Position numbers and translations under genes: made by a program. Of a DNA stretch of 64,000 bases, positions 33,702-63,720 are shown in pieces; the stretch's first letter is position 1; each line of letters begins with the position of its first letter. This DNA comes from Malacoraja senta (taxonomy: Eukaryota), in assembly GCA_038087875.1 (NCBI GenBank), contig CM075991.1, positions 3,224,001 to 3,288,000 of the forward strand, written 5' to 3'. Under the pieces are notes generated by a model. The model did not search any database and was not told the origin of the DNA. It saw only the letters and a list, made by a program, of their open reading frames with translations.

Positions 33702-34659
33702 GTTGGATGATCAGCCATGATCATATTGAATGGCGGTGCAGGCTCGAAGGGCCGAATGGCCTACTCCTGCACCTATTTTCTATGTTTCTATCTATGTTTT
33801 CGGAGACAATTAGGATTGGTGTCCCTTCGTGCTGAAGCGGAACCTGTCCATGACTTTGCCCTACTTCAGCACCAGTCACCTTGATTTTCCTGGCTTAAAC
33901 CTCATCCTTGCCCATCCAGTCAGTTTCTCCAACCCCTGCAGGATCCACCTGCCTCCTGGCAATGACTCAGTGGTGACAGTCAGGTCGTCCATGAAGGCTC
34001 TGATTCGTGGTTGGCGCACTCCTGACTTGGTCCGAGGGCCCCGGCACTCTGGCTCAGCAGACTTGACGATCATGTTTATCACCAAGGCAAAAAGGACCAC
34101 AGAGATGGTACAGCCTGTGGTGATCCCAACCTCCAGTCTGTGCCACTCTGATGTTACTGACCCTGATGAGACTGTCATGCTGGACTGGTTGTAATAGTCC
34201 TGGATGAGATCTGCCACTTGGCCCGGCACATGGTGCTTGGCCATGACTGTCGGATCAGCTTGTGTGGGAAGGAGCCATAGGCGTTGGCCAGGTCAAGCCA
34301 GAGCACTGTCAGGTCCCCCTTGTTCTCCCTGGCTTCTCTGATGAGCTGGGTCACCATTCCCGTGTGCTCTTGACACCCCGGCACTCTAGATAACCCTCCC
34401 TTTTGCACTGATGTAGCCATTGCTGGAAAGGAAGTTGGTCAGCCGCCTCGCCACTATGCTGAAGAAGTTCATAGGATCTATGCTAAAAATTATCGTAGGA
34501 TGAGGGAAGATTTGGTTAACAGGCCCAAATTAATCAAAGTGCAAACAAAATGTGTGGGAGGGAACTGCAGATGCTGGTATACACCGAAGATAGACACAAA
34601 ATGCTGGAGTAACTTGGCGGCTTGGGCAGCATTTCTGAAGAAAAAGAACAGGTGAGGTT

Positions 34660-42259: not shown

Positions 42260-44080
42260 AGATAAAAAATACATCTATTGATGCTCCTGAACACATCATC
42301 AGTTATGTAACACGGGGTCATTGGGTGTTTCGGGTCTTTCAACATCAGACACCCTCACCCAGGTGACCCAGCCGTGGTTGCTCAGACCACGACTTGTGTT
42401 CAGGTAGCATTCGCTCCTCCTCATGGACCTCCTCTCCTGATCCAGAGCCATCTCGAGGCCTTCTCCGCTGCCTCTGTGGTGTTCTTGATGGCTCTTCTCC
42501 TCTCCATTCCGTTGATGCCCAGTGCACTCAAGGCTTTGTAGAGCGATTGCCCTGCAAAACCTCTGCAGCCAACCTCAATGGGCATACACCTTGCCTTCCA
42601 GCCTTGTTTATGGCAGTCTATGACCAGCTCTTCGTACAAGACAATGTTTTTGTTCGCCTCTGAGACCAGGTGGATGTCTGGCCTCAGGGTGGTCGTGGCA
42701 ATGTGCTGTGCGAACTTCAGCTGTTTCACCAGGTCTACAGAAAGCTGCCAGTCCTGCACAGTCGCCAGGATGCCTGACAGATTCCTGACGGCTGTGGTTC
42801 TTGGCAGCTGCACTCCGGCCTTCACGAACGTGATCATCTGGGTGGTGGGGCGTGCTCGTCTGCAGCTGCTGATTCCCACGCTGATGACCTCTGCAATGGG
42901 TTTAAGAACCTGGTCGTGTCGCCAGGTGTACCAGCCCTGCCCAAGAGCCTTTGGGCAGCAGCTCAGGATGTTCCAATGTTCTGTTGACTGGGCATTGCGG
43001 GCAATCCGGAGATTCCGCTTTGCCCCAGATGAAGAGGTTCGATGGGTTGGGCAAGACATCGTACACTGCCTGGACCAAGAACTTGATGCACTGTGGTTCA
43101 GCCTGCCAGAGCTCAGTCCATGTGACTTTTCGGTCCATGGCCTGCTCCCACCTTGTCCAGGCTCCCTGCTGCCTCTAGCCAACCACTCTGCTAGACCTCT
43201 CCTCCTTCACCTCTGCCCTCACTTCCTCCTGGACCAGCCTGCGGCTCTCCTACCCCTTGGCCTTGTCAAACTGGGGAGTTGGGAAGATTCCCACACCAGC
43301 TCTTCCCCGAGTCACTGCTCCCACCAGGACTCTGTAGCGTATCCGAGACTCTCCTTCCAGCACGGCTTCGCCGGCTCTCCGCTTCCTCCCAGTTTTCACA
43401 TCCACCCGTGCCTGAGCCACCTTGGGATCGCTGGAGTCCCTGTACAGCATCACCACTCTGGCCCGAGTCACCTTAAACTCCTCCTCCAGGGACTTCAGGG
43501 GCAGCTGGAGCTTGGTGTTATTTCCGTAAAGGGCGATGCTGCTAAGGCTCCTGGGCAGTCCCAGCCACCTCCTGAAAAAGCTGCTGACTTTCCTCTACAA
43601 TCTCTCTACGATGGATATTGGGACTTCGTAAACAAGCAGTGGCCAGAGTATCCTTGGCAAGATACCATGCTGGTAAATCCATGCCTTGAACTTGCCTGGA
43701 AGCCCCGACCGGTCCACCGCTCTCAACCAGCTCTCCAGCTCCTAACAGGTTGCCTGAACTGATGCTGTATCCTTCAGGCTGCTGTTAAACACCTTGCCAA
43801 GACTCTTCACTGGCTTTTCAGAGACAATTAGGATTGGTTCGATGCTGAAGCGGAACCTGTCCATGACTTTGCACTTCTTCAGCACCAGTCACCTTGTTTT
43901 TCCTGGCTTAAACCTCATCCTTGCCCATCCAATCAGTTTCTCCAACCCCTGCAGGATCCACCTGCCTCCTGGCAATGACTCAGTGGTGACAGTCAGGTCG
44001 TCCATGAAGGCTCTGATTGGTGGTTGGCGCATTCCTGACTTGATCCGAGGGCCCAGGCATTCTGGCTCAGTAGACTTGAT
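42260..44080 (-). mobile_element. Hero-like RLE LINE, copy 2; continues at 52151-52204, 53827-53880, 60316-60369 and 63721-64000
   Basis: Same motifs as copy 1. An in-frame deletion at ~42638 removes ELTVPWEDRLEEAHERKMTK from the endonuclease. Confidence 0.9.
42290..42354 (-). ncRNA. Candidate non-canonically permuted hammerhead ribozyme in the Hero 3' UTR (copy 2)
   Basis: GGGUGUC-UGAUGU-ugaaa-GACCC-GAAACACCC-14nt-ACAUAA-CUGAUGA-U-GUGUU. Confidence 0.5.
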
Positions 44081-44471
44081 TTTACTTCGGAGTCACGTGA
44101 GTGACTACGTGAAGAAGAGCCCGTCCAACCGCACACGCGTCATATCGTCAGACGCATAGCGCAGTGACCGATGTGTTTGGAGTGAGCACAGCTCCTCCAA
44201 ACCGGTAAGTTAAAAGTGTTTACTTACGTTTTTCAGGTTGCTTTCTTCAGAGAACTTGTAGTTGGGAAAACACAAGTCAGAATGAAGAAAGGATGTTAGA
44301 GACGTACCGCAGGTAAACTCCAGAAAGACCGCGGGTCTGCGAGTAGCGGGCGCCCTTTTGATTTTAAATACGGGTAAATATATATACCGTTGTAGCGCCA
44401 TTAGGGCGCAAGAGAAAAAGGCCGGGTGGCCAGTAGACTCTGAACATTTTGTTCTATTCAGGACCGCATTG

Positions 44472-44980
44472 GGAGGCCAGCGCAGGGAATGCCAGGGGAA
44501 GGTCCGGGCTTAGCGTTGGCCTATAGGAGAGCCCGCGCATGAAGTGCCTGGGGAAGGTCCGGCTTAGTGTTGGCCTACAGGAGCCAGCGCAGGGAGTGCC
44601 TGGGGAGGTCCGGGCTTAGCTTTGGTCTATAGGAGAGCCAGCGCATGGAGTGCTTTAGAAGGTCCGGCTCAGCGTTGGCCTAAGGGAGAGCCAGCGCAGG
44701 GAGTACTTGGGATGGTCCGGCTCAACGCTGGCCTACAGGGGAGCCAGTGTGAGCAATGTCTGGATAAAGGAATTTTTATGCGTTGGTCTACAGGAGAGCC
44801 AGCGCCAACTATGTCTGGAGAAGGACAGTTTAAGCGTTGGCCTAGAGGTGAACCAGGGCCAGCAGCACCTGAACGAGGGCTGCCTATGCATGGGCCTACA
44901 GGAGAGCCTGCACAGCGAGCACCTGGGAAAGGGTTTACTTTGCGTAGGCCTATGGGAGAGCCAGCGCTAGAAATACCTGA
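44472..44980 (+). repeat. ~54-bp tandem repeat (~9.5 copies) in the gag region of DIRS A
   Basis: GGAGAGCCAGCG..GGCCTA recurs every 52-54 nt and encodes 18-aa units starting GEPA. Confidence 0.88.
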
Positions 44981-46750
44981 AGCAGGATGCCAATTCGCCC
45001 CCACCATGAGGAGGATTATTTCATGCAAAGATTCAGTAAATGAAATATGAGGACCAGAGCCCAATAACAGAGCCTAAAGGACCAGATTTGGCACAATATA
45101 TAACATTTGTGGTTCCAAAACTATCAGGGGTGCCATTGGTAGATAAATTAGCAATGTCAATAAATTACTTGCTCTCCCAGCAGCTCCAGGTTCTGACCAT
45201 GTATGAGCTGTCAATAAATATGAAACCCGCAGTATTGAGCATTGTAAGCAGTCTCAGTGGGGGAGGGGGGGGGGGAATAAATAAATAAATAAATGGCAGA
45301 GGGTGTTGAAATTGCTGGTCAGGCATTACGGCTTTTTGGCCAGAGGTTGGATGGAGAGCATGTGTCTGTATCACAACAAGGTTGACTTAGCACTCATGTG
45401 TAGTGCGCACTTTGAAATAAACTGTATTTATAAAAGTGCTATAAGACCTAACATATACCCTAAGTTTGGGTTCTGTACACCATCTAATATGTAATTGCCT
45501 TATAATCTGTTTTGGAAAGAATCTAGCCAAAAAAGGAATGAACCTGTCGGTGATTGGCAGATCAAATCGAAGGAAGTTTTCCCTACCAATGTGTGGTGAC
45601 TGGGGACTGTGAAGGATCAAATCGGTCTTTCGCATATTTGCGTTGTTGGCGCACTCCTCCTGAGGTATGTGGAGGTTCAATATTCCCACTAAGATCAGGG
45701 GATAACAATTGCCATAGGCAAACCCTGAGGTAGGGGGTCTGGTTCTGTAAGAGACATTAATGTTTACACTTACAAGTTGGGAAAGATTACAATTCTTGCT
45801 AAAAGAATGGCAATTTGATGTATTTATACTGTATAGTATTGTGGGGTTTAGAATTGAATTCTACCCATATTTGGTTTTCAACCGGACACATATTTCTCAA
45901 AATAAGAGAATATGCAGACTCAGGCAGAACATGAAATATTGTGAAAAAGGGATAATTAAGAAGTCAGTTCACCATCACCACCAATTTATGCCAAGTGTGT
46001 TATGAGAGCAAATAAGGATGGTGGGTGTAGAATTATTCTAGATCTGACAAGTTTTAACCCTTTTTTGTACTATAAAAAACAGTTTTTTGGAACATTTGCC
46101 AATACTATGCAGCCAATTTCAAGAAAATGCTATATGGCTAGCATAGATCTTAAAATGCATTTTACTGTGTGACTGTATATGGTAAATAATCATAGATATT
46201 TAAAATTTAGCTGGATGAGTCAACTATGGCAATTTAAAGCATTGTATTAAGGTTTAGCCTCAGCTCTGAGACTATTTGCCAGGTTGTTGGAACCAATCTC
46301 AGCATTACTAAGAAATGAGGGCCATTTGGTAATGGCCTATTTTGATATATTCTGATTGTAGGAAACACTCGGGCTACAACAGAACCATGAGTGCCAAGAA
46401 TGAAGCTCACTTTGGAGATTTATTAACCATCCAGTTAAATCGAAACGATTACCAAACACAGTTATTGATTATTTGGGTTTCATTATTAAATGAGAACACA
46501 TGGTAGTGATTCCGCCCAAGGATAAAGGCTGCGTTTAATTGGAAGTTGTATTAAGCTCATTACAGAGCACCAACCCTCAATCAGGCAGGTAGCAAGCCTG
46601 CTTTGCAAACTATTGCTTATTTTCAGCTGTACAATTTAGATCGCTGTTTTATCAGCATTTACAGCAAGCATAGATACAGGCATGGAGAATACATTTTGCC
46701 AGGCCCATGTATTTTGTTAGGCCCATGTATTTAGGGCATTTTGCCAGGCC

Positions 46751-48633
46751 CAGGGAACATAAAAACTGACTGCAAAAGTTTTTATAGATATGTGAAGAGA
46801 AAGAGATAAGTTAAAACAAATGTAGGTCCCTTGCAGTCAGAAACAGGTGAATTGATCATGGGGAACAAGGACATGGCAGGTAAATTGAATGGATTAAAGG
46901 CCGATAAATCCCCAGGGCCAGATAGGCTGCATCCCAGAGTACTTAAGGAAGTAGCCCCAGAAATAGTGGATGCATTAGTGATAATTTTTCAAAACTCCTT
47001 TGATTCTGGAGTAGTTCCTGAGGATTGGAGGGTAGCTAATGTAACCCCACTTTTTCAAAAGGGAGGGAGAGAGAAAATGGGGAATTACAGACCAGTTAGT
47101 CTAACATCGGTAGCGGGGAAACTGCTAGAGTCAGTTATTAAAGATGGGATAGCAGCACATTTGGAAAGTGGTGAAATCATTGGACAAAGTCAGCATGGAT
47201 TTACGAAAGGTAAATCATGTCTGACGAATCTTATAGAATTTTTCGAGGATGTAACTAGTAGAGTGGATAAGGGAGAACCAGTGGATGTGTTATATCTGGA
47301 CTTTCAGAAGGCTTTCGACAAGGTCCCACAAGAGATTAGGATACAAACTTAAAGCACACGGTATTGGGGGTTCAGTATTGATGTGGATAGAGAACTGGCT
47401 GGCCAACAGGAAGCAAAGAGTAGGAGTAAACGGGTCCTTTTCAGAATGGCAGGCAGTGACTAGTGGGGTACCGCAAGGCTCAGTGCTGGGACCCCAGCTA
47501 TTTACAATATCTATTAATTATTTGGACGAGGGAATTGAATGCAACATCTCCAAGTTTGCGGATGACATGAAGCTGGGGGGCAGTGTTAGCTGTGAGGAGG
47601 ATGATAGGAGGCTGCAAGGTGACTTCGATAGGCTGGGTGAGTGGGCAAATGCATGGCAGATGCAGTATAATGTGGATAAATGTGAGGTTATCCACTTTGG
47701 TGCCAAAAACAGGAAAGTAGACTATTATCTTAATGGTGGCCAATTAGGCAAAAGGGAGATGCAACGAGACCTGGGTGTCATGGTACACCAGTCATTGAAA
47801 GTAGGCAGACAAAAGGGTATCGGCCCGAAACGTTGCCTATTTCCTTCGCTCCATAGATGCTGCTGCACCCGCTGAGTTTCTCCAGCATTTTTGTGTACCT
47901 TCGATTTTCCAGCATCTACAGTTCCTTCTTTAACACATTGAAAGTAGGCATGCAGGTGCAGTAGGCAGTGAAGAAAGCGAATGGTATGTTAGCATTCATA
48001 GCAAAAGGATTTGAGTATAGGAGCAGGGAGGTTATACTGCAGTTGTACAGGGTCTTGGTGAGACCACACCTGGAGTATTGCGTACAGTTTTGGTCTCCAA
48101 ATCTGAGGAAATACTTTCTTGCCATAGAGGGAGTACAGAGAAGGTTCACCAGACTGATTCCTGGGATGTCAGGACTTTCATATGAAGAAAGACTGGATAG
48201 ACTCGGCTTGTACTCTCTAGAATTTAGAAGATTCAGGGGGGATCTTATAGAAACTTACAAAATTCTTAAGGGGTTGGACAGGCTAGATGCAGGAAGATTG
48301 TTCCCGATGTTGGTGAAGTCCAGGACAAGGGGTCACAGTTTAAGGATAAAGGGGAAATCCTTTAGGACCGAGATGAGAAAAACATTTTTCACACAGAGAG
48401 TGGTGAATCTCTGGAACTCTCTGCCACAGAAGGTAGTTGAGGCCAGTTCATTGGCTATATTTAAGAGGGAGTTAGATGTGGCCCTTGTGGCTAAAGGGAT
48501 TAGGGGGTATGGAGAGAAGGCAGGTACAGGATACTGAGTTGGATGATCAGCCATGATCATATTGAATGGCGGTGCAGGCGGGAAGTGCCGAATGGCCTGC
48601 TCCTGCACCTATTTTCTATGTTTCTATGTTTCT
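46751..48633 (+). mobile_element. 5'-truncated CR1 inside DIRS A
   Basis: RT ORF pieces 46831-48537 and a tail; internal deletion at ~46879. Confidence 0.95.
47808..47935 (+). mobile_element. 128-bp Penelope-like pLTR insertion
   Basis: AAGGGTATCGGCCCGAAACGTT hammerhead half, then GCTGAGTTTCTCCAGCA. Perfect 15-bp TSD CATTGAAAGTAGGCA at 47793-47807 and 47936-47950. Confidence 0.85.
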
Positions 48634-50537
48634 ATTTGCCAGTTGCAGTTATTACTGGAATACTATGATGGATCATGATTGTCTCAAAAGCTTCCAGAGA
48701 TCCTGGTTGAAACACCTTCCATTATGCTACAGACTAATTTTAGTGCTCTAGGTTGGGGGCATACATAAGTATTTCCAGCTGTGGAGGTAGATGGAATGTG
48801 GGGAAAGTACCTTTGATCCAATAACAAGGGATCATTTAATGAGAGTTTTAGGAACAATTTATGGCCTAAAGCTTATTGCTCTAATATGCAAAGTTTGCAT
48901 GTTTAGGTATAGATTGACACTACGGAATAGAAACGTATGTTAATCATTTGAGTGGTATGAAGTCAGAATCTTGTGATAGACTGGCTAATGTGATCTGGAC
49001 CTGGTGTTTTTACAAGAATATTTGGTTTGGCAATCTACCTACCTGGTAGATTCAAAATAATTGCAGACTCATGGTCATGTAAATTCAATGATAATACAGA
49101 ATGGATGTTGGATCGTGACAAATTTAGTAATATTGTTGCATGGTTGGTGACTTGTTTGCATCCAGACTTAACCACCAATTACCTAAATATGTGTCATGGG
49201 AACCTGATCCTGGGGCAGTAGGATGTTTCTCGCTGCATTGGGGTAGAATGTTTTTATATACATTTTCTCCATTTTTGCCTCATTTAGTCAGTATATACAG
49301 AAGATCAAACAGGACTCCGCTTCGGGAGTATTGGTGGTACCAGATTGGACCTACAAAACCATGGTACCCTCTGGTGATAAAAATGATCACAAAGCCTCTT
49401 ATGATTTTCCCAAAACAGAATTAACCTGTTTGTGCACCCTATAACTGATGATTCACATCCTTTACATAATCGTATTGGTTTGTTGATTTGCAGATTCTAA
49501 GGAGTTCCATATATTGGAAGAGGACTATCAGATCGTATTGTGGATATTATTGCAACCTGGAGGGATAGTACCCAGAAGCAGTACATTTCTTACATAAGGA
49601 AATGGGATATGTTTTGCTTAAGGCAGAATATTACATATCACACTACAGACATCTCAGACGTGTTAGAGTTTCTGTCAACTCTTTATTTTTTATTGGCAGT
49701 TAAGCTATAGTGCTATCAATACTGCAAGGAGTGCTTTTTCTGCATAGCTATGGAGGGAATCAGAATAAATTCTTGTAGGGTTACACCCTTTGGTCTGTAG
49801 ATTTAGGAAGGGAATTTTCAATTCTAAGCTTCCTAGGCACAGCTTTACAAAAATCTGGAATATAAGAGATATGTTATGCTTTTTCGTTAATGGACTCCTA
49901 TTGCAGTGCTGTCCTTGGCCTAAATTACCATGAAGGTAGTCATGCTCAGGGCACTGGTTTCAGCACAGAGAGTGAAAACATTGCAGAAACTACGAATAGA
50001 CATGATGGAAATAGCAACAGATACTATTATGTTCTATGTCTATGATTTGCTTAAATAGAGTAGACCTGGAATCACAGGATGTAAGTTGGGGTTTTCAGCA
50101 TATCCTACGGATCCACGTCTATGTGTAGTATCACATTTACAATGTTAGATTGAAGCCACCAGAACCTTAAGAGGTGCAGTATCAGCATTTTATTAGCCAT
50201 AAATAATTGCATAAGAAAGTGTCGGTTCAGACTATTTCAAAATGGCTGAAGCAGGTGTTGCTTGATGCAGGTATTGATACTGACAAATTTAAATCTCAAT
50301 CCATCAACATTGGCGGCCAAGGATTTGGATGTTCCAATAGAACATATCCTCGCGGCCGCAGGACAAAGTGAAAGAATGTTTCACAAGTATTACCATAAGG
50401 AGATTATAGTACCTGTGGTTATTTGGTGGTGCTATTTTGGATTTAGTATTAAGTTTCCTCTTGTGATAAAGGGGTTACTATTGTGGTGATAAATTAACCA
50501 TTAACTGGTTGCATCCATGTTGTGGTTATGCATTGTT

Positions 50538-51726
50538 AGAAACATAGAAACATAGAAAATAGGTGCAGGAGTAGGCCATTCGGCCCTTCGAGCCTGCACC
50601 GCCATTTGATATGATCATGGCTGATCATCCAACTCAGTATCCCATCCCTGCCTTCTCTCCATACCCCATGATCCCTTTAGCCACAAGGGCCACATCTAAC
50701 TCCCTCTTAAATATAGCCAATGAACTTGCCTCAACTACCCTCTGTGGCAGAGAATTCCACAGATTCACCACTCTTTGTGTAAAAAATGATTTCCTCATCT
50801 CGGTCCTAAAAGTCTTCCCTCTTATCCTTAAACTGTGACCCCTAGTTCTGGACTTCCCCAACATCCGGAATAATCTTCCTGCATCTAGCCTGTCCAACCC
50901 CTTAAGAATGTTGTACGTTTTTATAAGATCCCCCCCTTAGTCTTCTGAATTCCAACGTGTACAAGCCGAGTCTATCCAGTCTTTCCTCATATGAAAGTCC
51001 TGCCATCCCAGGAATCAGTCTGGTGAACCTTCTCTGTACTCCCTCTATGGCAAGAATGTCTTTCCTCAGATTAGGAGACTAAAACTGTACGCAATACTCC
51101 AGGTGTGGTCTCACCAAGACCCTGTACAACTGCAGTAGAACCTCCCTGCTCTTATTCTCAAATCCTTTTGCTATGAATGCTAACATACCATTTGCTTTCT
51201 TCACTGCCTGCTGCATGTACATTTTTACTTTCAATGACTGGTGTACCATGACACCCAGGTCTCGTTGCATCTCCCCTTTTCCTAATCGGCCACCATTCAG
51301 ATAATAGTTTTCTTTCCTGTTTTTGCACCAAAGTGGATAACCTCACATTTATCCACATTATACTGCATCTGCCATGCCTTTGCCCACTCACCCAACCTAT
51401 CCACCTTGCAGCCTCCTAGCATCCTCCTCACAGCTAACACTGCCCCCCAGCTTCGTGTCATCCGCAAACTTGGAGATGTTGCATTCAATTCCCTCATTCA
51501 GATCATTAATATATATTGTAAATAGCTGGGGTCCCAGCACTGAGCCTTGCGGTACCCCACTAGTCACTGCCTGCCATTCTGAAAAGGACCCGTTTACTCC
51601 TACTCTTTGCTTCCTGTCTGCCAGCCAGTTCTCTATCCACATCCATACTGAACCCCCAATACCATGTGCTTTAAGTTTGTATGCTAATCTCTTATGTGGG
51701 ACCTTGTCGAAAGCCTTCTGAAAGTC
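50538..51726 (-). mobile_element. 5'-truncated CR1 inside the DIRS A 3' region
   Basis: RT C-terminal half plus tail. Confidence 0.95.
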
Positions 51727-51817
51727 ATTTATTGTTGATTGCTTTACTTATTTAGTCAATCAATGCAGTGAGACGCCTGGATTTGAATCTACGGCGTGAA
51801 AACACAGAGCTTTGAAA

Positions 51818-51930
51818 TCTTCACGTAGTCACTCACGTGACTCTGAAGTAAAATAGTAAGATTAAACGAGAACTTACCAGTTTGAAATTTGATCTGTATT
51901 TTAAGAGGAGTTACATTGAGGGACTACGTG
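51818..51930 (+). repeat. DIRS A internal complementary region (ICR); further copies at ~53494-53606 and split 55169-55203 / 60018-60095
   Basis: Reverse complement of the left terminus joined directly to the reverse complement of the right terminus. Confidence 0.93.
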
Positions 51931-52204
51931 CCCTTCAATCCCACTCTCATAAAGATCGAGCTGGTAGTTCTAGTCTTTACGTATCTTACTATCATACTTC
52001 AGTAATTGTTGTCTGTGATTTCACTCCGCTGCTTTGAAGATTGACGCATGTGAGGCTGGACGGGCTCTTCTTCACGTAGTCCCTCAACGTAACTCCTCAT
52101 AAAATAAAGATCAAACTTCAAACTGGTAAGTTCTCATTTAATCTTACTATGATCATGTTCATCGCCAAGGCATAAAGGATCACAGAGATGGTACAGCCTG
52201 TGTT

Positions 52205-53402
52205 ACATAGATACATAGATACATAGAAAATAGGTGCAGGAGTAGGCCATTCGGCCCTTCGAGCCTGCACCGCCATTCAATATGATCATGGCTGATCATC
52301 CAACTCAGTATCCCGTACCTGCCTTCTCTCCATACCCCCTGATCCCCTTAGCCACAAGGGCCGCATCTAACTCCCTCTTAAATATAGCCAATGAACTGGC
52401 CTCAACTACCCTCTGTGGCAGAGAGTTCCAGAGATTCACCACTTTCTGTGTGAAAAAGTTTTTCCTCATCTCGGTCTTAAAGGATTTCCCCCTTATCCTT
52501 AAGCTGTGACCCCTTGTCCTGGACTTCCCCAAACATCGGGAACAATCTTCCTGCATCTAGCCTGTCCAACCCCATAAGAATTTTGTACGTTTCTATAAGA
52601 TCCCCTCTCAATCTCCTAAATTCTAGCGAGTATAAGCCAAGTCTATCCAGTCTTTCTTCATATGAAAGTCCTGACATCCCAGGAATCAGTCTGGTGAACC
52701 TTCTCTGCACTCCCTCTATGGCTATAATGTCCTTCCTCAGATTTGGAGATCAAAACTGTACGCAATACTCCAGGTGTGGTCTCACCAAGACCCTGTGCAA
52801 CTGCAGTAGAACCTCCCTGCTCCTATACTCAAATCCTCTTACTATGAAGACCAACATACCATTCGCTTTCTTCACTGCCTGCTGCACCTGCATGCCTACT
52901 TTCAATGACTGGTGTACCATGACACCCAGGTCTCGTTGCATCTCCCGTTTTCCTAATCGGCCACCATTCAGATAATAGTTTTCTTTCCTGTTTTTGCACC
53001 AAAGTGGATAACCTCACATTTATCCACATTATACTGCATCTGCCATGCCTTTGCCCACTCACCCAACCTATCCAAGTCACCTTGCAGCCTCCTAGCATCC
53101 TCCTCATAGCTAACACTGCCCCCCAGCTTCGTGTCATCCGCAAACTTGGAGATGTTGCATTCAATTCCTCATTCAGATCATTAATATATATTGTAAATAG
53201 CTGGGGTCCCAGCACTGAGCCTTGCGGTACCCCACTAGTCACTGCCTGCCATTCTGAAAAGGACCCGTTTACTCCTACTCTATGCTTCCTGTCTGCCAGC
53301 CAGTTCTCTATCCACATCCATACTGAACCCCCCAATACCATGTGCTTTAAGTTTGTATGCTAATCTCTTATGTGGGCACTTGTCGAAAGCCTTCTGAAAG
53401 TC
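52205..53402 (-). mobile_element. Chimeric CR1 (recombinant)
   Basis: 3' part matches the 60370 copy; 5' part matches the 50538 copy. Confidence 0.9.
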
Positions 53403-53880
53403 ATTTATTGTTGATTGCTTTACTTATTTAGTCAATCAATGCAGTGAGACGCCTGGATTTGAATCTACAGCGTGAAAACACAGAGCTTTGAAATCTTCAC
53501 GTAGTCACTCACGTGACTCCGAAGTAAAATAGTAAGATTAAACGAGAACTTACCAGTTTGAAGCTTGATCTTTATTTTAAGAGGAGTTACATTGAGGGAC
53601 TACGTGCCCTCCAATCCCACCCTCATAAAGATCGAGCTGGTAGTTCTAGTCTTTACGTATCTTACTATCATACTTCAGTAATTGTTGTCTGTGATTTCAC
53701 TCCGCTGCTTTGAAGATTGACGCGTGTGCGGCAGGACGGGCTCTCCTCCACGTAGTCCCTCAACGTAACTCCTCATAAAATAAAGATCAAACTTCAAACT
53801 GGTAAGTTCTCGTTTAATCTTACTATGATCATGTTCATCGCCAAGGCATAAAGGATCACAGAGATGGTACAGCCTGTGTT

Positions 53881-55077
53881 ACATAGATACATAGATACAT
53901 AGAAAATAGGTGCAGGAGTAGGCCATTCGGCCCTTCGAGCCTGCACCGCCATTCAATATGATCATGGCTGATCATCCAACTCAGTATCCCGTACCTGCCT
54001 TCTCTCCATACCCCCTGATCCCCTTAGCCACAAGGGCCGCATCTAACTCCCTCTTAAATATAGCCAATGAACTGGCCTCAACTACCCTCTGTGGCAGAGA
54101 GTTCCAGAGATTCACAACTCTCTGTGTGAAAAAGTTTTTCCTCATCTCGGTCTTAAAGGATTTCCCCCTTATCCTTAAGCTGTGACCCCTTGTCCTGGAC
54201 TTCCCCAACATCGGGAACAATCTTCCTGCATCTAGCCTGTCCAACCCCATAAGAATTTTGTACGTTTCTATCAGATCCCCTCTCAATCTCCTAAATTCTA
54301 GCGAGTATAAGCCAAGTCTATCCAGTCTTTCTTCATATGAAAGTCCTGACATCCCAGGAATCAGTCTGGTGAACCTTCTCTGCACTCCCTCTATGGCTAT
54401 AATGTCCTTCCTCAGATTTGGAGACCAAAACTGTACGCAATACTCCAGGTGTGGTCTCACCAAGACCCTGTACAACTGCAGTAGAACCTCTCTGCTCCTA
54501 TACTCAAATCCTCTTACTATGAAGACCAACATACCATTCGATTTCTTCACTGCCTGCTGCACCTGCATGCCTACTTTCAATGACTGGTGTACCATGACAC
54601 CCAGGTCTCGTTGCATCTCCCCTTTTCCTAATCGGCCACCATTCAGATAATAGTTTTCTTTCCTGTTTTTGCACCAAAGTGGATAACCTCACATTTATCC
54701 ACATTATACTGCATCTGCCATGCCTTTGCCCACTCACCCAACCTATCCAAGTCACCTTGCAGCCTCCTAGCATCCTCCTCACAGCTAACACTGCCCCCCA
54801 GCTTCGTGTCATCCGCAAACTTGGAGATGTTGCATTCAATTCCTTCATTCAGATCATTAATATATATTGTAAATAGCTGGGGTCCCAGCACTGAGCCTTG
54901 CGGTACCCCACTAGTCACTGCCTGCCATTCTGAAAAGGACCCGTTTACTCCTACTCTTTGCTTCCTGTCTGCCAGCCAGTTCTCTATCCACATCCATACT
55001 GAACCCCCAATACCATGTGCTTTAAGTTTGTATGCTAATCTCTTATGTGGAACCTTGTCGAAAGCCTTCTGAAAGTC
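53881..55077 (-). mobile_element. Chimeric CR1 (recombinant, second copy)
   Basis: Same switch pattern as 52205-53402. Confidence 0.9.
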
Positions 55078-55719
55078 ATTTATTGTTGATTGCTTTACTT
55101 ATTTAGTCAATCAATGCAGTGAGACGCCTGGATTTGAATCTACGGCGTGAAAACACAGAGCTTTGAAATCTTCACGTAGTCACTCACGTGACTCCGAAGT
55201 AAAATAGTAAGATTAAACGAGAACTTACCAGTTTGAAGTTTGATCTGTATTTTATGAGGAGTTACGATGAGGGATTACGTGAAGACCCCGTCCAGCACGC
55301 ATGCGCGACATTCTTCAAAGCAGCGGTGTGGAATCACAGGAAACACAATAATTGAAATAAACATAGTAAAGAAAAGGAGAACTAAGATACCTGTTGATCT
55401 ATATATTTGAGGGTGGGAGCGGAGGGCACGTAATCCCTCATCGTAACTCCTCATAAAATACAGATCAAACTTCAAACTGGTAAGTTCTCGTTTAATCTTA
55501 CTATTTTACTTCGGAGTCACGTGAGTGACTACGTGAAGATTTTAAAGCTCTGTGATTTCAAACCGTGTAACAGTTCATACTTCACTCGCTGCCGAAGTCA
55601 TTCAAGGGAGGAAGTATGTTATCGTAATCAACCATAATCTGTTTATAAACAATAATGGTATCTATTAAACAATAACAAAAGACAAAATGCTCCCCTGGGC
55701 TTAAATTATATATTTTTGC

Positions 55720-56680
55720 AGATTTTAAAACTCTTTCTGCAAATAACACAGGTTCTGCTAGCGGCTTGTGGTAGAACGTTTGGAACGTTTTCTCCATGTT
55801 CATTCTTTTAGCCGCCGATGTGGATGCTGCCCTGGTGGAGTGAGATGTATATACATCAGTATCTACTCCAGCAGCTCCCAGTACCTGCTTGAGCCATCTC
55901 GCGATGGTTTGGCTCGACACCCAACCATGAGGTTTCTTGTGGCTGACCCATAAGGCTTTTTTATTTATTTATTTATTATTATTTTATTTTTTTTCCTTTC
56001 TCCCTCGAGAATCTCTTGTTGTGTTGTTGTAAGTGAATAAGTGAGTCATGACACACAACCGTAGGTCAGGTGGGTATGCCCGGAAATCCATAACTAGGAC
56101 TCAAGTTCCTTGCTTGCTCTGCTTTAGCAGCTCCTGAATGGTGAATGAGACCCGGTCTGGTGTTATAACCATGTTGTCCAGTCGCAGTAAGTGGAGGGAC
56201 TGGACTCTTTGTGCTGAGACTAGTAGCATCAGCATGACCGTTTTCAGGGTTAGCTTTTCCAGGGTGAGAGACCTGGCTGGGGACCATCCCCTTAGGTATG
56301 TCAGGACCACACTGACATCCCAGATTTGTGTATACCTAGGTCTAAGAGGGTTGGAGTTGACGATACTCCTCATGAGTTTGATCACCAGCGGGTGAGACCC
56401 TATGGCCTGTTGTCCTGGCACCTGTTTTAAATAGGCTGACAGCGCATGTCTGGCAGTATTGATGGCGCTGTGGCTCAATCCTTCATTATGGTGAAGGCCC
56501 CCCAGGAACTCCAGTACATTGGTTATGGTTGCAGATGAGTACGTTGTCCCAGTAGTCGAGCAGTATCTTTCCCACTTCCTGATGCTCGATAGGTATTGTT
56601 TCCTGGTGGACATACGGTGTCATCATGTTGATGGTCCTGTCAGATAATCCCAGTCCCAGCAGTGGTCTTTTGATAATCTG
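55720..56680 (-). pseudogene. DIRS B tyrosine recombinase (frameshifted)
   Basis: LVSAQRVQSL (R), SHSTRAAS (HxxR) and TFQTFYHK (Y). Confidence 0.88.
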
Positions 56681-56699
56681 CAACCCAGTAGGTTAATTT

Positions 56700-57113
56700 T
56701 GGCATGGCATGGATGACTTATGCCTGATACGTCAATAGGTCTGGGCTACTGGGAAAGGTCATAGGAGTATCGATGACCATGTCGAGGACCACTGGGAACC
56801 ATGGCTGTGTAGGCCAGTTGGTACTATCAAAATACCTGAAGCAGAGTCCATCTGTATTTTGCGTAGTACCCTACAGATTAAGGCAGAAGGGGAAAAAAGC
56901 ATAGAAGAAATCGGTCCCCCAGTTCAGCGCGAATGCATCTATCGCTGCTGCCTCAGGGTGTGGTTCCCAAGGGACATACATTGGTACGTGGTGATTTAGT
57001 CTGGATGCAAAGAGATCGATATCTGGTGTGCCATATTGGTTTGTAATTTTAGCAAAAGCTCTAGGATTTAACACCCATTCGGTGTTTATCATTGAATTTG
57101 CATGACCTGGCAC
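56700..57113 (-). pseudogene. DIRS B N6-adenine methyltransferase-like domain
   Basis: EW.L..DIDLFASRLN..DAF..NW..YAFFPF (YAFPPF-like). Confidence 0.8.
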
Positions 57114-57119
57114 TGTATT

Positions 57120-58400
57120 TAGCTTACCTGGTAGGTAAGTTGCTGATAGCCAAATATGTCTATCGACCCACCATTACCAGATTGTGTTGACCCAATTGTC
57201 ACATGATATCGATTTTATTCCGGTCATATGGTTAATATAGGCCACCACCGTGATATTATCAATTTGTAAATGAACATGCAAGTTGTGCATATTCCTAGAA
57301 TATGCTTTAAAACCATAAAACGCACCCAACATTTCCAAATAATTTATGCCCAGTGTTTGTAGTAAAGACGAGTCTAGGTTAGTCCATCTACCACCTGTGC
57401 TGGATATGGTATTAGTTGCTCCCCAGCCTTGAGCACTGTCATCTGTTTGTATAGTTAACGTTGGGTTATTGATGATGATAGGGCTGGAACTATGCCAAAT
57501 GTGTTATATCCACCATTGTAACTCTGATATTGCTTCAATGGGTAGTTTCATGGATATGTCAAAGTGACCTGCATGTCGTTTCAACGCCTGTACTTTTGCC
57601 CTTTGTAGGTGCTGATAGTGCAGGAGTCCAAATTGTGTAGCTGAAAATGCTGCTACCATTTTGCCAATTACTCTTGCCACTTGTCGGATGGTTGGTCGAT
57701 TGCTTACCATTAAATTGTTGCACATCTGTGCCAATTCTGCTGCTTTACCTTTTGGCAACGTTACAGACATGTGGATTGAGTTAATTGTGAATCCCAGATA
57801 GTCCATAGTTGTGGATGGCGTCAACTTAGATTTATCTGGATGTATGACAAACCCAGGGTTTCAAACAATTGTTTGGTAGCTAATACAGCTGATTTAGCCA
57901 ACTCCATGGTTTTGCCAACTATTTGGATATCATCAAGATACGCCATGACAATATGTCTTTGTTTTGTTAATGTTGCCAAGGCTGGTTTTAATATCTTGGT
58001 AAATAGTCTAAGGCTGATGTCAACCCATTAGGCAACACTTTATACTGCCATAGTTGCCCCATCCAGGTAAATTTTCAGGTATCTGCGATGACCCTTGTGA
58101 ATGGGTACTGAATAGTAGGCATCTTTTAAATCAATGCTTGCCATAAAGTATCCTTTGGAAATCAGTTGTTTAGCAGTTACAAATGTTTCCATTTTGAAAT
58201 GTACATACTTAACAAAGGTATTTAGTGAGGTTAAGTCAATGATGATGCGACATCCACCATCTTTTTTGCTTTTGGTAAATATATTTGAGACAAATTCCAA
58301 AGGATCATGTTTGGATTTCTCAATGACACCCTTTGTAAGTAACCTCCCCAGTTCTGCTTGAGCCTCTAGTTCTCTTTGACTGAGAGGGTAAAGACCCTTT
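57120..58400 (-). pseudogene. DIRS B reverse transcriptase / RNase H (frameshifted)
   Basis: KSKKDGGCRIIIDL, ASIDLKDAYY, YLDD at ~57930 and DYLGFTI. Confidence 0.9.
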
Positions 58401-60369
58401 GGGGTACGTGCTGAACTGGTGGCATGTTTTCTTGAATGAACTCTATTTTGTATCCCCGAATACTGTTAAGTATATAACTATCATTCGTGAGACACCTCCT
58501 GTTAGTACAGACCTCCTGTTAGTACAGTTCCCCATTTACATGCTGGTAGGAACCAGACCCACCTACCTCCATAGTTATGGTAGTGTTCCTTTCTTCCGTT
58601 TGTTCATCCGTCGTTATACTGCTGGATGTACTGCTGATGTACTGCTGATTGGGGGTGGCGCATTTTCCATGGGGTCCGCTCTGGGCTCTGGCCTAAAAAG
58701 GCTTTCGGGGATAGTATGCGGACCCCGAGCTTTCACCAGTTACCTAAATTTGACCTTGACTGGTGGACGCGGTGGGGTACTGCCGTCTGGTTTTTTGTGT
58801 GGGTCTGCTCGTTCCGGGGCCTGCCCACATAAGGCCAAATGCTTTGGACTCTTCCTCCAGGTCTTTCACTTGTCCTTCCAAATAACAGGATCTGCGGCTC
58901 TGAGGCCGGTGTTTTACACAGTCCTGCAAACCTGGGATTGAGGGCAGGTCTTATTCTCTCCTTGCGGAGGTTATTTATCTCATATTGGGTGTAGCACAGC
59001 AGAGCCAGAGTGTCTTGCTGGTTTGTGGTCATATCCACCCCATCCACGGAACGAGCATAGGCTGTTATCCCTGTCGTCAGGAGCTTGAGGATTTTAGCTC
59101 CTGGTTCCAGATACTCTGTCCCCCCCCCCCAGATTTGGCTGTTAACAGCCGGTACATTGAGCGAACTGCAGTTTTCCAGCTCTAGTGCCTCATTAAGTAC
59201 CTGTCTTGTAGGGGTTTGAGGGACAGGTGGTTGATGCTGGCCGCCAGTTTTGGCTCCAATGGCCGCCCTGCTCGTGGTGAAACCACGTAGCGAATCTCCA
59301 CACCCAGCAGCTCTTCCTGATCCTGTACCCCAAGCGTACTCCCGACATCTTCAGCCAATGACCCCTGTTCCTGACCAGCCCAGCCCTGGTCGCCAACGCT
59401 GCCCTGCTTTGAGGGGAAAGCGATGGCCAGTGCATTGTAGAGCACTGCTGTGGGAGTGCCTGATCACCCTGGCGAGACTGCTCTAGCTCCTGAAGCAAGT
59501 CTCGCTGGAGCAGTTGCTCCATGAGCCTTTCCATTTGGCTCAGGCGGCTAGCTCTGCCGCTCTAAGGCGGACCCTCCTCATAACCGGCCGGTTTTTTGTT
59601 TTTGTTGTTTTTTTTTAACTTTTCCTCCAGCCCGCTGCCGCTCATCAGGCTACGCTAGCGGGACTGGGCTCGGCTCGGTCTCGATGAGGGTGGACCGCCG
59701 CATATGCGGTCCAGGTGCCGCCTCTCGCCCCCCACTGATGGAACACTCCCGTTCTGTTGGAGTCGAACGGGGGGCGGTTATCTTCCTTTGCCGTGCTGCT
59801 CCTGTTCCCAGTTCCTCTGGAATACAGAGCAGAGCACAGCTTGCGGATTACGACCTCAGTGTAAGACTTACCTGATGGTCCGCTGTTTAGTTTTCACCGA
59901 CGTGTAGCGGGAGCGCCTGTACTCCCGGTCGTCGCTGTTGCACTGCGTGAACGCTAATGTCGCGCATGCGTGCTGGACGGGGTCTTCACGTAGTCACTCA
60001 CGTGACTCCGAAGTAAAATAGTAAGATTAAACGAGAACTTACCAGTTTGAAGTTTGATCTGTATTTTATGAGGAGTTACATTGAGGGACTACGTGCCCTC
60101 CAATCCCACTCTCATAAAGATCGAGCTGGTAGTTCTAGTCTTTACTTATCTTACTATCATACTTCAGTAATTGTAGTCTGTGATTTCACTCCGCTGCTTT
60201 GAAGATTGACGCGTGTGCGGCTGGATGGGCTCTTCTTCACGTAGTCCCTCAACGTAACTCCTCATAAAATAAAGATCAAACTTCAAACTGGTAAGTTCTC
60301 GTTTAATCTTACTATGATCATGTTCATCGCCAAGGCATAAAGGATCACTGAGATGGTACAGCCTGTGTT

Positions 60370-63300
60370 ACATAGATACATAGATACATAGAAAATAGGT
60401 GCAGGAGTAGGCCATTCGGCCCTTCGAGCCTGCACCGCCATTCAATATGATCATGGCTGATCATCCAACTCAGTATCCCGTACCTGCCTTCTCTCCATAC
60501 CCCCTGATCCCCTTAGCCACAAGGGCCGCATCTAACTCCCTCTTAAATATAGCCAATGAACTGGCCTCAACTACCCTCTGTGGCAGAGAGTTCCAGAGAT
60601 TCACCACTCTCTGTGTGAAAAAGTTTTTCCTCATCTCGGTCTTAAAGGATTTCCCCCTTATCCTTAAGCTGTGACCCCTTGTCCTGGACTTCCCCAACAT
60701 CGGGAACAATCTTCCTGCATCTAGCCTGTCCAACCCCATAAGAATTTTGTACGTTTCTATAAGATCCCCTCTCAATCTCCTAAATTCTAGCGAGTATAAG
60801 CCAAGTCTATCCAGTCTTTCTTCATATGAAAGTCCTGACATCCCAGGAATCAGTCTGGTGAACCTTCTCTGCACTCCCTCTATGGCTATAATGTCCTTCC
60901 TCAGATTTGGAGACCAAAACTGTACGCAATACTCCAGGTGTGGTCTCACCAAGACCCTGTACAACTGCAGTAGAACCTCCCTGCTCCTATACTCAAATCC
61001 TCTTATTATGAAGACCAACATACCATTCACTTTCTTCACTGCCTGTTGCACCTGCATGCCTACTTTCAATGACTGGTGTACCATGACACCCAGGTCTCTC
61101 TGCATCTCCCCATTTCCTAATCGGCCACCAGTTAGATAATAGTCTGCCTTCCCGTTTTTGCGACCAAAGTGGATAACCTCACATTTATCCACATTATACT
61201 GCATCTGCCAAACATTTGCCCACTCACCCAGCCTATCCAAGTCACCTTGCAGTCTCCTAGCATCCTCCTCACAGCTAACACTGCCCCCCAGCTTAGTGTC
61301 ATCCGCAAACTTGGAGATGTTGCTTTCAATTCCCTCGTCCAGATCATTAATATAAATTGTAAATAGCTGGGGTCCCAGCACTGAGCCTTGCGGTACCCCA
61401 CTAGTCACTGCCTGCCATTCTGAAAAGGACCCGTTTACTCCTACTCTTTGCTTCCTGTTTGCCAGCCAGTTCTCTATCCACATCAATACTGAACCCCCAA
61501 TACCGTGTGATTTAAGTTTGTATCCTAATCTCTTATGTGGTACCTTGTCGAAAGCCTTCTGAAAGTCCAGATACAACACATCCACTGGTTCTCCCCTATC
61601 CACTCTACTAGTTACACCCTCGAAAAATTCTATAAGATTCGTCAGACACGATTTACATTTCGTAAATCCATGCTGACTTTGTCCAATGATTTCACCACTT
61701 TCCAAATGTGCTGATATCCCATCTTTAATTACTGACTCTAGCAGTTTCCCCACCACCGATGTTAGACTAACTGGTATGTAATTCCCCGTTTTCTCTCTCC
61801 CTCCCTTCTTAAAAAGTGGGGTTACGTTTGCTACCCTCCAATCCTCAGGAACTACTCCAGAATCTAAAGAGTTTTGAAAAATTATCACTAATGCATCTAC
61901 TATTTCTGGAGCTACTTCCTTAAGTACTCTGGGATGCAGCCTATCTGGCCCTGGTGATTTATCGGCCTTTAATCCATTCAATGTCTTCCTTAGTGAAGAC
62001 GGAACCAAAGTAGTTATTCAATTGGTCCGCCATAACCTTGTTCCCCATGATCAATTCACCTGTTTCTGACTGCAAGGGACCTACATTTGTTTTAACTAAT
62101 CTCTTTCTCTTCACATATCTATAAAAACTTTTGCAGTCAGTTTTTATGTTTCCTGCCAGTTTCCTTTCATAATCTATTTTCCCTTTCCTAATTAAGCCCT
62201 TTGTCCCCCTCTGCTGGTCTCTGAATTTCTCCCAGTCCTCTGGTATGCTGCTTTTTCTGGCTAATTTGTACGCATCATCTTTTGCTTTGATACTATCCCT
62301 GATTTCCCTTGTTATCCACGGATGCACTACCTTCCCTGATTTATTCTTTTGCCAAACTGGGATGAACAATTTTTGTAGTTCATCCATGCAGTCTTTAAAT
62401 GCCTTCCATTGCATATCCACCGTCAACCCTTTTAGAACTAATTGCCAGTTAATCTTGGCCAATTCACGTCTCATACCCTCAAAGTTACCTTTCTTTAAGT
62501 TCAGAACCGTTGTTTCTGAATTAACAATGTCACTCTCCATCCTAATGAAGAACTCAACCATATTATGGTCACTCTTGCCCAAGGGGGCACGCACAACAAG
62601 ACTGCTAACTAACCCTTCCTCATTACTCAATACCCAGTCTAGAATAGCCTGCTCTCTCGTTGGTTCCTCTACATGTTGGTTTAGATAACTATCCCACATA
62701 CATTCCAAGAAATCCTCTTCCTCAGCACCCCTGCCAATTTGATTCACCCAATCTATATGTAGATTGAAGTCACCCATTATAACTGTTTTGCCTTTGTTGC
62801 ACGCATTTCTAATTTCCTGTTTGATGCCATCCCCAACTTCAGTACTACTGCTAGGTGGCCTGTACACAACACCCACCAGCGTTTTCTTCCCCTTAGTGTT
62901 TCGCAGCTCTACCCATACCGATTCCACATCCTCCAAGCTAATGTCCTTCCTTTCCACTGCGTTAATCTCCTCTCTAACCAGCAACGCTACCCCACCTCCT
63001 TTTCCTTTCTCTCTATCCATCCTGAATATTGAATATCCCTGGATGTTCAGCTCCCAGCCTTGGTCACCCTGGAGCCATGTCTCCGTGATCCCAACTATAT
63101 CTTAATCATTAATTGCTATCTGCACGTTCAACTCATCCACCTTATTGCGAATGCTCCTTGCATTGAGACACAAAGCCTTCAGGCTTGTTTTTACAACGCT
63201 CTTACCCCTTATACAATTATGTTGAAAAGTGCCTCTTTTTGATTTTTGCCCTGGATTTGTCTGCCTGCCACTTTTACTTTTCACCTTGCTACCTATTGCT

Positions 63301-63720
63301 TCCGCCCGCATTTTACACCCCTCTTTTTCTCTGCTCAAGTTTAAAGTCTCCCCAGTAGCCTTTGCAGATCTCCCTGCCAGGATATCGGTCCCCCTCAGGT
63401 TCAAGTGCAACCCATCCTTTTTGTAGAGGTCGAACCTTCCACAAAGGAGGTCCCAATGATCCAGAAATTTGAATCCCTGCCTTCTGCACCAGTCCTTCAG
63501 CCACGCATTTATCCTCCACCTCGCTCCATTCCTACTCTCACTGTCGCGTGGCACAGGCAGTAATCCCGAGATTGTTACCTTTGCTGTCCTTCTCTTTAAC
63601 TCCCCTCCTCTCCCTAAATTCTCCTTTCAGGACCTCTTTTCTTTTTTTACCTATGTCATGGGTACCTATATGTACCACGACCTCGGGCTCCTCTCCCTGC
63701 CCTTTCAGGATATCTTGGAC
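60370..63720 (-). mobile_element. Long 5'-truncated CR1 (part of ORF1 + ORF2) inserted in Hero copy 2
   Basis: 512-aa and 353-aa ORF2 pieces; 5-bp TSD GTGTT at 60365-60369 and 63721-63725; two internal deletions. Confidence 0.96.

Follow-up and report, generated by a model that had tools for sequence, protein, structure and literature searches.

Dictyostelium discoideum DIRS-1 and the members of the DIRS1-like superfamily, as described in PMC3266345, are elements of ~4.8 kb with gag-like, reverse transcriptase (RT) and tyrosine recombinase (YR) genes, inverted terminal repeats (ITRs) and an internal complementary region (ICR) complementary to both termini. Both ends carry ATT, the ICR centre carries AAT, and apart from the shared trinucleotide the target site is not duplicated. 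The trinucleotide at the two ends, mostly ATT, complements the 3-bp junction of the circle, and integration is regarded as a recombination with an identical genomic trinucleotide (PMC3266345, PMC7192593). Along with this 3-bp rule, the insertion of DIRS elements into DIRS copies is already known (PMC7192593, PMC3266345, PMC2665215, PMC5941688), and such ‘homing’ has been reported for the Dictyostelium centromeres (PMC2665215) and for zebrafish (PMC5941688). Here we describe a pair of this kind from Malacoraja senta, in which a minus-strand element, DIRS B, sits inside the ICR of a plus-strand element, DIRS A. The window, i.e., the whole stretch of DNA analysed, comprised 64,000 nucleotides (C15:3224001-3288000) of an assembly of 1.94 Gb in 6182 contigs, and the pair lies within a nest of transposable elements. 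The family shares the DIRS-1 traits listed above. Unlike DIRS-1, it resides in a 1.94-Gb, animal-type genome in thousands of copies and consists of several protein-divergent lineages with nearly identical termini and ICRs. Public runs show that the family is also carried by related organisms. The nested insertion is real and cleanly resolved, and it follows from the known DIRS integration model; the ICR seems to be a predictable target of the 3-bp rule and not a privileged landing pad. Dictyostelium homing shows a strong preference, with a target that PMC2665215 calls unresolved, whereas the target here is defined to the base, as the ICR centre, but receives <0.3% of insertions. No paper naming the ICR as a target was found in open-access text, a coverage that does not include Goodwin and Poulter (2001-2005) and Cappello (1985).

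The tail of DIRS A, with its ICR, is present three times in a tandem array with a period of 1671-1676 bp, except for one spacing of 6489-6490 bp. DIRS B splits the third copy of the ICR, in inverted orientation and at the 3-base centre. Without its two AAT copies, B spans 55206-60016 on the minus strand; its length is 4814 bp counting one AAT, and every reading frame is broken. The insert is bounded by two 113-nt direct repeats on the plus strand. The left one (55169-55281) is composed of the left half of A’s ICR (l'), AAT (55203-55205) and the 3'-terminal 76 nt of B, which are B-type. The right one (59983-60095) is composed of the 5'-terminal l' of B, AAT (60017-60019) and the right half of A’s ICR, which is A-type at +61, +62 and +70 and carries a B-type T at +50. 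The two repeats differ from each other at three positions, +61, +62 and +70 after the AAT, where the left repeat has the B-type CGATGAGGGATT, the same as B’s own ICR, and the right repeat has the A-type CATTGAGGGACT, the same as array units 1 and 2. Both borders read GAAGTAAA|ATAGTAAG, and the AAT forms a 3-base overlap of both ends, with the border drawable on either side. The junction 37-mer CACGTGACTCCGAAGTAAAATAGTAAGATTAAACGAG occurred five times in the window (51834, 53510, 55185 and 59999 on the plus strand and 55487 on the minus strand) and 0 times in shuffles. The initial annotation of this DNA had described a 4814-bp minus-strand insert in the third A ICR, the spacing relation 6489 − 4814 = 1675, the identical border sequences, and diagnostic bases of B-type on the left and A-type on the right; all of this was borne out, the last point by comparison with B’s own ICR and units 1-2.

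The ITR cores of B are 33 nt long and identical (55277-55309, plus strand; 59959-59991, minus strand). Its own ICR (55398-55539, centre ATT at 55503-55505) is 93-97% complementary to both borders. Coding remnants of A and B were located by tblastn with natural open reading frames (ORFs) of family relatives. Those of B lie on the minus strand and correspond to the YR (55717-56701; 64% over 314 aa, E 3e-127), the RT (57090-58202; 77% over 242 aa, E 1e-142) and the gag-like gene (58646-59793). In Pfam scans, B’s own RT piece reached only 16.7 bits for RVT_1 and its YR piece 23.9 bits for Phage_int_SAM_4, both below cut-off. The better-preserved relatives encode the enzymes: the ORF aligned at 77% over 242 aa scores 65.5 bits for RVT_1, the one aligned at 64% over 314 aa scores 31.1 bits for Phage_int_SAM_4 (and 25.6 bits for Phage_integrase, below cut-off), and the ORF of a second relative, with 63% identity to B over 285 aa, scores 29.8 bits for Phage_integrase. 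B can be classed as DIRS1-like by its RT, its YR in place of a DDE integrase, its ITRs, an ICR complementary to the joined termini, and the shared end trinucleotide, which is complementary to the ICR centre and is the sole target duplication. The general Pfam scans listed neither a methyltransferase nor an RNase H domain, for which no dedicated search was made.

B is a true insertion into a resident ICR because the ICR of A is uninterrupted in units 1 and 2 (centres AAT at 51852-51854 and 53528-53530) and in the paralogs on contigs C1502 and C5692. In these two paralogs the tail directly follows the body and is single, with an intact ICR, no LINE (long interspersed nuclear element) and no array. 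The same empty sites confirm the proposal of the initial annotation that B entered a resident ICR, inverted, at the equivalent of the circle junction. The opposite order of events, with B first and the halves of A’s tail later, was rejected since empty paralogs exist. The left-border signature could in principle also result if the 142-nt spacer that separates r' from r were inverted; this was rejected in view of the complete 4.8-kb guest and the right border. The 30-mer joining A’s 3' end to its flank has 16 occurrences in the genome. Blocks with the 1675 and 6489 spacings are located on C15, C173, C3258 (twice) and C4760, and single tails lacking B on C1502 and C5692; the five B-containing array copies in the assembly carry private base differences. 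We infer that B entered A’s ICR once and that the whole block of array and B was then segmentally duplicated, to at least five copies in the assembly.

The AAT found at both B borders recurs in the family. We fetched 60 ordinary family copies (20 B-type and 40 of any subtype), which, after dropping duplicates and unanchored rows, yielded 57 right and 41 left flanks. AAT follows the 5' end in 54/57 ordinary insertions and precedes the 3' end in 39/41. Over a few bases, the left flanks of the targets are similar to the AGTAA|AAT arm of the junction (A.TAA|AAT), with A at −5 in 24/41, T at −3 in 25/41 and A at −2 in 23/41, whereas C at −1 was never seen (n = 41). By hand count, AG follows AAT in 9/57 flanks, and GTAA precedes it in 5/40 targets, the tandem case L026 being left out. 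These ends follow the published DIRS1 3-bp rule. Genome-wide we also observed 31 head-to-tail r|AAT|l junctions, not de-duplicated (e.g., L002-L005, L007, L008 and L026), in which a 3' end, a single AAT and the 5' end of the next element are joined as in a circle junction.

A BLAST-type search of the genome with B’s ICR returned nothing, as very common words are skipped, and exact and gapped patterns were used instead. The ICR junction 34-mer has 8736 genome copies. With 5' ends anchored by the pattern GCGCATGCG...CTTCACGTAGTCAC, 3731 ends were found in total; 9 abut an ICR right half, as in the right border of a nested copy (5 of these are copies of the event in the window), and the 31 head-to-tail junctions abut another element. 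A looser anchor gave 14 right borders, or 13 after removal of L099, a false positive of the general right-border pattern, against 8589 intact ICRs at the same stringency. The left-border pattern matched 21 times; several matches are one-sided, which makes this pattern alone non-diagnostic, and such cases were not counted. Two candidates for nested copies were rejected: L041 is an ICR variant, and L033 is a self fold-back extension with the guest’s own private variant. In L033 (~227-771, script orientation), the 3' end is extended by ~120 nt (l' and pre-ICR), a mirror of the element's own ICR region in which its private variant GTCTCTCACG is found again; this looks like snap-back synthesis on the ICR.

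Eight independent two-sided ICR-nested events remained, namely that of the window (WIN), L001, L012, L042, L043, L045, L049 and L096, with hosts and guests of various, often different, subtypes and with differing host flanks. The genome-wide count of ICR-nested copies suggested in the initial annotation therefore revealed recurrence, and also rarity, with 9 of 3731 anchored 5' ends (5 independent). In addition, one-sided junctions were observed, left only in L034, L036/L037, L039 and L046 and right only in L048, L050, L095 and L097. Each of these has one half of an ICR linked through AAT to one end of an element, whose other end lies next to unrelated DNA; either recombination of an ICR with the end of a resident element, i.e., a rearrangement, or a later deletion could have produced them.

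Whether this use is frequent depends on the reference. The density of AAT plus ATT in the window, 0.0395 per base, corresponds to ~7.7e7 sites in the genome, compared to ~8.6e3 ICRs. For random AAT sites, ~0.4 ICR matches would be expected among the 3731 ends, and at least 5 independent ones were seen (Poisson P ~7e-5, hand calculation); the ICR is used above chance for a random AAT. The comparison with sites of the same core gives another picture. The genome contains 32,230 GTAAAATAG sites, of which at least 8,589, about a quarter of such 9-mers, are ICRs. Non-ICR GTAA-AAT-AG sites were used by 2/40 ordinary insertions (L016 and L078). Equal use per site predicts ~2% of insertions in ICRs, with a wide interval (n = 2), and 0.13-0.24% were observed; ICR occupancy is ~0.16%, and ICR-nested copies make up <0.3% of the 3731 anchored 5' ends. 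The ICR does not seem to be used above the rate of other GTAAAATAG sites, a comparison made on a small sample, with a number of ICR targets that grew over time and with nested copies that can be lost between the 113-nt repeats. The full site showed no preference over partial sites (13-14 right borders vs 8589 intact ICRs). As far as a preferred mode of integration is concerned, the claim of the initial annotation that the ICR acts as a self landing pad does not agree with these numbers: nested insertion is recurrent but rare, and ‘landing pad’ overstates it. We infer that the ICR is targeted since it necessarily holds the family’s best core, without special recognition.

To place the exchange, four sequences were compared for each two-sided event: both borders, the guest’s own ICR and the host’s right ITR. 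The interval in which host bases switch to guest bases is 46-98 nt wide and includes the AAT in 8/8 events, with 0/8 switching elsewhere; in L001, L012 and L045 it is narrowed to ~46 nt (−18 to +25). By our own arithmetic, the joint chance of this outcome is ~0.02 if the exchange is uniform over 113 nt. At +50, the right border of B in the window’s event shows a B-type T instead of the A found in units 1-2 and in the two empty paralogs, an indication of a short conversion tract or of some later change. T also occupies the corresponding position in A’s own right ITR. The crossover had been described as not localisable within ~95 nt of identity. The homology holds, over a repeat that measures 113 nt, but because of the T at +50 the exchange is not wholly unlocalisable.

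B was probably placed by the family’s ordinary integration, in which the YR would recombine a circular copy with the AAT in A’s ICR. As a duplex, the ICR would repeat the circle junction (...GAAGTAA-AAT-AGTAAG...) and so carry the preferred core; the asymmetric AAT would allow one orientation only, forcing the guest to be inverted; and the ICR would be entered as one good core among ~32,000 GTAAAATAG sites, without special affinity, before array and B were copied together. We favour the recombinase because the AAT rule is near-universal, target flanks mimic the junction, the exchange intervals contain the AAT, and homology between host and guest is little and imperfect. Such a reaction resembles lambda-type att, Cre-lox and FLP-FRT systems, in which recombination takes place between the junction of a circle and a chromosomal site that matches it, the orientation follows from an asymmetric overlap, and the insert ends up between two complete sites. 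It differs from them in its overlap of 3 bases, in that most targets share few flanking bases with the donor, in the lack of preference for the full site (the ICR), and in that the role of the recombinase is predicted. Several points weigh against this assignment. Homologous recombination of the Campbell or ends-in type would give an identical product; neither enzyme activity nor a circle was observed; and recognition of the whole site would predict far more ICR use than the 14 right borders (13 without the false positive). An exchange confined to the AAT does not predict the T at +50, for which a later conversion or mutation is needed, and the exchange-interval test is weak (p ~0.02), some of its diagnostic bases being CpG sites. 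Moreover, the circle and YR pathway, which the initial annotation had called established, is a model, described in PMC7192593 as largely untested experimentally, and in the Dictyostelium experiments of that paper mostly linear single-stranded cDNA was found.

That linear cDNA, as the main Dictyostelium intermediate (PMC7192593), would suit homologous recombination without the recombinase, which might have joined B’s junction region to A’s ICR through the ~113 nt of near-identity, from a circle (Campbell-type) or from linear cDNA with each of its two ends matching one ICR half (ends-in). This course is possible, if clearly the less probable of the two. As in Campbell-type plasmid integration or ends-in gene targeting, its product is a homology-flanked insertion with 113-nt direct repeats on both sides; the right border’s B-type base at +50 resembles a short conversion tract, the 31 head-to-tail tandems are what recombination between a circle and a resident copy should yield, and the absence of preference for the full ICR site is also in its favour. 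However, homologous recombination would not readily account for exchange intervals that always include the 3-base centre (8/8 events, ~46 nt in three), for hosts and guests that are often of different subtypes with indels in the homology, or for the family’s ordinary insertions, which require only a few bases and no longer homology. The raw ratio of tandem to nested junctions, 31:9, is far from the ~43:1 given by the homology lengths (own arithmetic). Imperfect identity over 113 nt is also short for efficient recombination in animal cells. A true att-like ICR, with special affinity and reversible use, whose low occupancy would be due to precise excision at high frequency or to loss between the 113-nt repeats, is very unlikely. 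Both borders do rebuild a complete l'|AAT|r' in direct orientation, which makes reversibility possible on paper, and ICR halves are joined to element ends in the one-sided junctions; nevertheless, at ~0.16% the ICR occupancy does not exceed the level deduced for other GTAAAATAG sites from 2/40 ordinary insertions, and neither an excision product nor a polymorphic empty site was seen. Least probable of all, and scarcely credible, is an assembly artefact in which a B copy was threaded into the array through the shared terminal sequence. This sequence does occur in thousands of copies (the 34-mer 8736 times), and the Logan contigs from public runs are 60-100 nt long in this repeat, with no record bridging a border or spanning B. 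Against it, the array with B and its two spacings was assembled five times with private differences, which argues against the one-off misassembly named in the initial annotation as a possible refutation, and seven other loci show the two-sided architecture in other hosts.

Although the proteins of A and B are 35-44% identical, their left-terminal 35 nt are identical, and the 113-nt ICRs differ at ~4 positions; other guests, whose bodies are 65-75% identical to B, likewise have termini at 85-95%. Such sharing would reflect either extreme constraint or exchange among lineages. It is conceivable, though rather unlikely, that ICR and circle junction act as a functional pair of recombination sites common to protein-divergent DIRS lineages. 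If so, nested copies, head-to-tail tandems, one-sided junctions (as chromosomal rearrangements) and terminus exchange between lineages would all result from one pair of sites, the presence of ~96% identical ICRs in elements of ~40% protein identity would be explained, and the unexplained homing of Dictyostelium DIRS elements into one another would gain a concrete target.

Few experiments have addressed how DIRS elements integrate, and this genome may serve as a natural sequence record of the process. Taken together, the AAT ends, the junction-like target flanks, the 31 circle-type tandem junctions and the repeated insertions at junction-equal sites support a circle that integrates by 3-bp exchange. 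The self-target is rarely used and is therefore no driver of clustering in this genome. The census is transferable to Dictyostelium DIRS-1, whose strong preference for self-insertion has, according to PMC2665215, an unresolved target.

DIRS A itself is a full-length but decayed DIRS1-like element on the plus strand. Its 5' end, located by blastn-short, comprises ATT and the left terminal sequence l (TTTACTTCGG..., given also as TTTACTTCGGAGTCACGTGAGTGAC...), followed by the ITR core (44078-44115, plus strand); 35/35 bases agree with B’s 5' end, and the core matches the reverse complement of A’s right ITR. The empty paralog of A’s site reads gacttg-ACG-atcatg, compared to gacttg-ATT...ACT-ATG-atcatg with A (34055-34080 vs 44063-44080 and 52143-52166). 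Because the empty paralog has ACG there, A itself seems to have entered a non-ATT site. Six degenerate units of 52-53 nt are arranged in tandem at 44496-44976, in the 5' region of A upstream of the gag-like remnant. The decayed body (45291-50423, plus strand) was aligned by tblastn with the relatives’ ORFs at 35-44% amino acid identity (E 1e-10 to 1e-53), whereas a Pfam scan of its short ORF pieces gave no match. On the same strand, it contains remnants of the gag-like gene (45291-45542), the RT (46110-46733 and 48756-49031) and the YR (49507-50423), and it is interrupted by a plus-strand LINE (46751-48635).

The tail of A runs in the order pre-ICR, ICR, 142-nt spacer and right ITR ending in CTTACTAT. 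In the window, a 1.2-kb LINE 3' piece parts the body from the tail, and a full LINE follows A’s 56-nt flank. The tandem array (50537-55168, no strand assigned; period ~1675 bp) consists of LINE 3' pieces on the minus strand (50537-51726, 52208-53402 and 53884-55077) alternating with A tails and 56 nt of A’s flank, the unit of LINE piece, tail and flank being present three times. The right ITR ends CTTACTAT of the array units lie at 52150 and 53826. Beyond B, the rest of the third tail (60096-60371, plus strand) contains the spacer and the right ITR, which ends in CTTACTAT at 60315, and then the 56-nt flank. The LINE pieces of units 2-3 have the same beginning as the downstream LINE and stop where the LINE piece within A is truncated. 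For this reason, unequal crossover between two LINE copies seems to be the origin of the array, the paralogs on C1502 and C5692 keeping the state that preceded LINE and array. The 3' end of the full-length LINE (60372-63626, minus strand; RVT_1 100.8 bits, Exo_endo_phos 48 bits) closes the array. An upstream ORF piece of this LINE (63102-63626, minus strand), adjoining the endonuclease and RT ORFs, gave a weak GDSL-lipase/esterase-like match (Lipase_GDSL_2, 28.7 bits, below cut-off).

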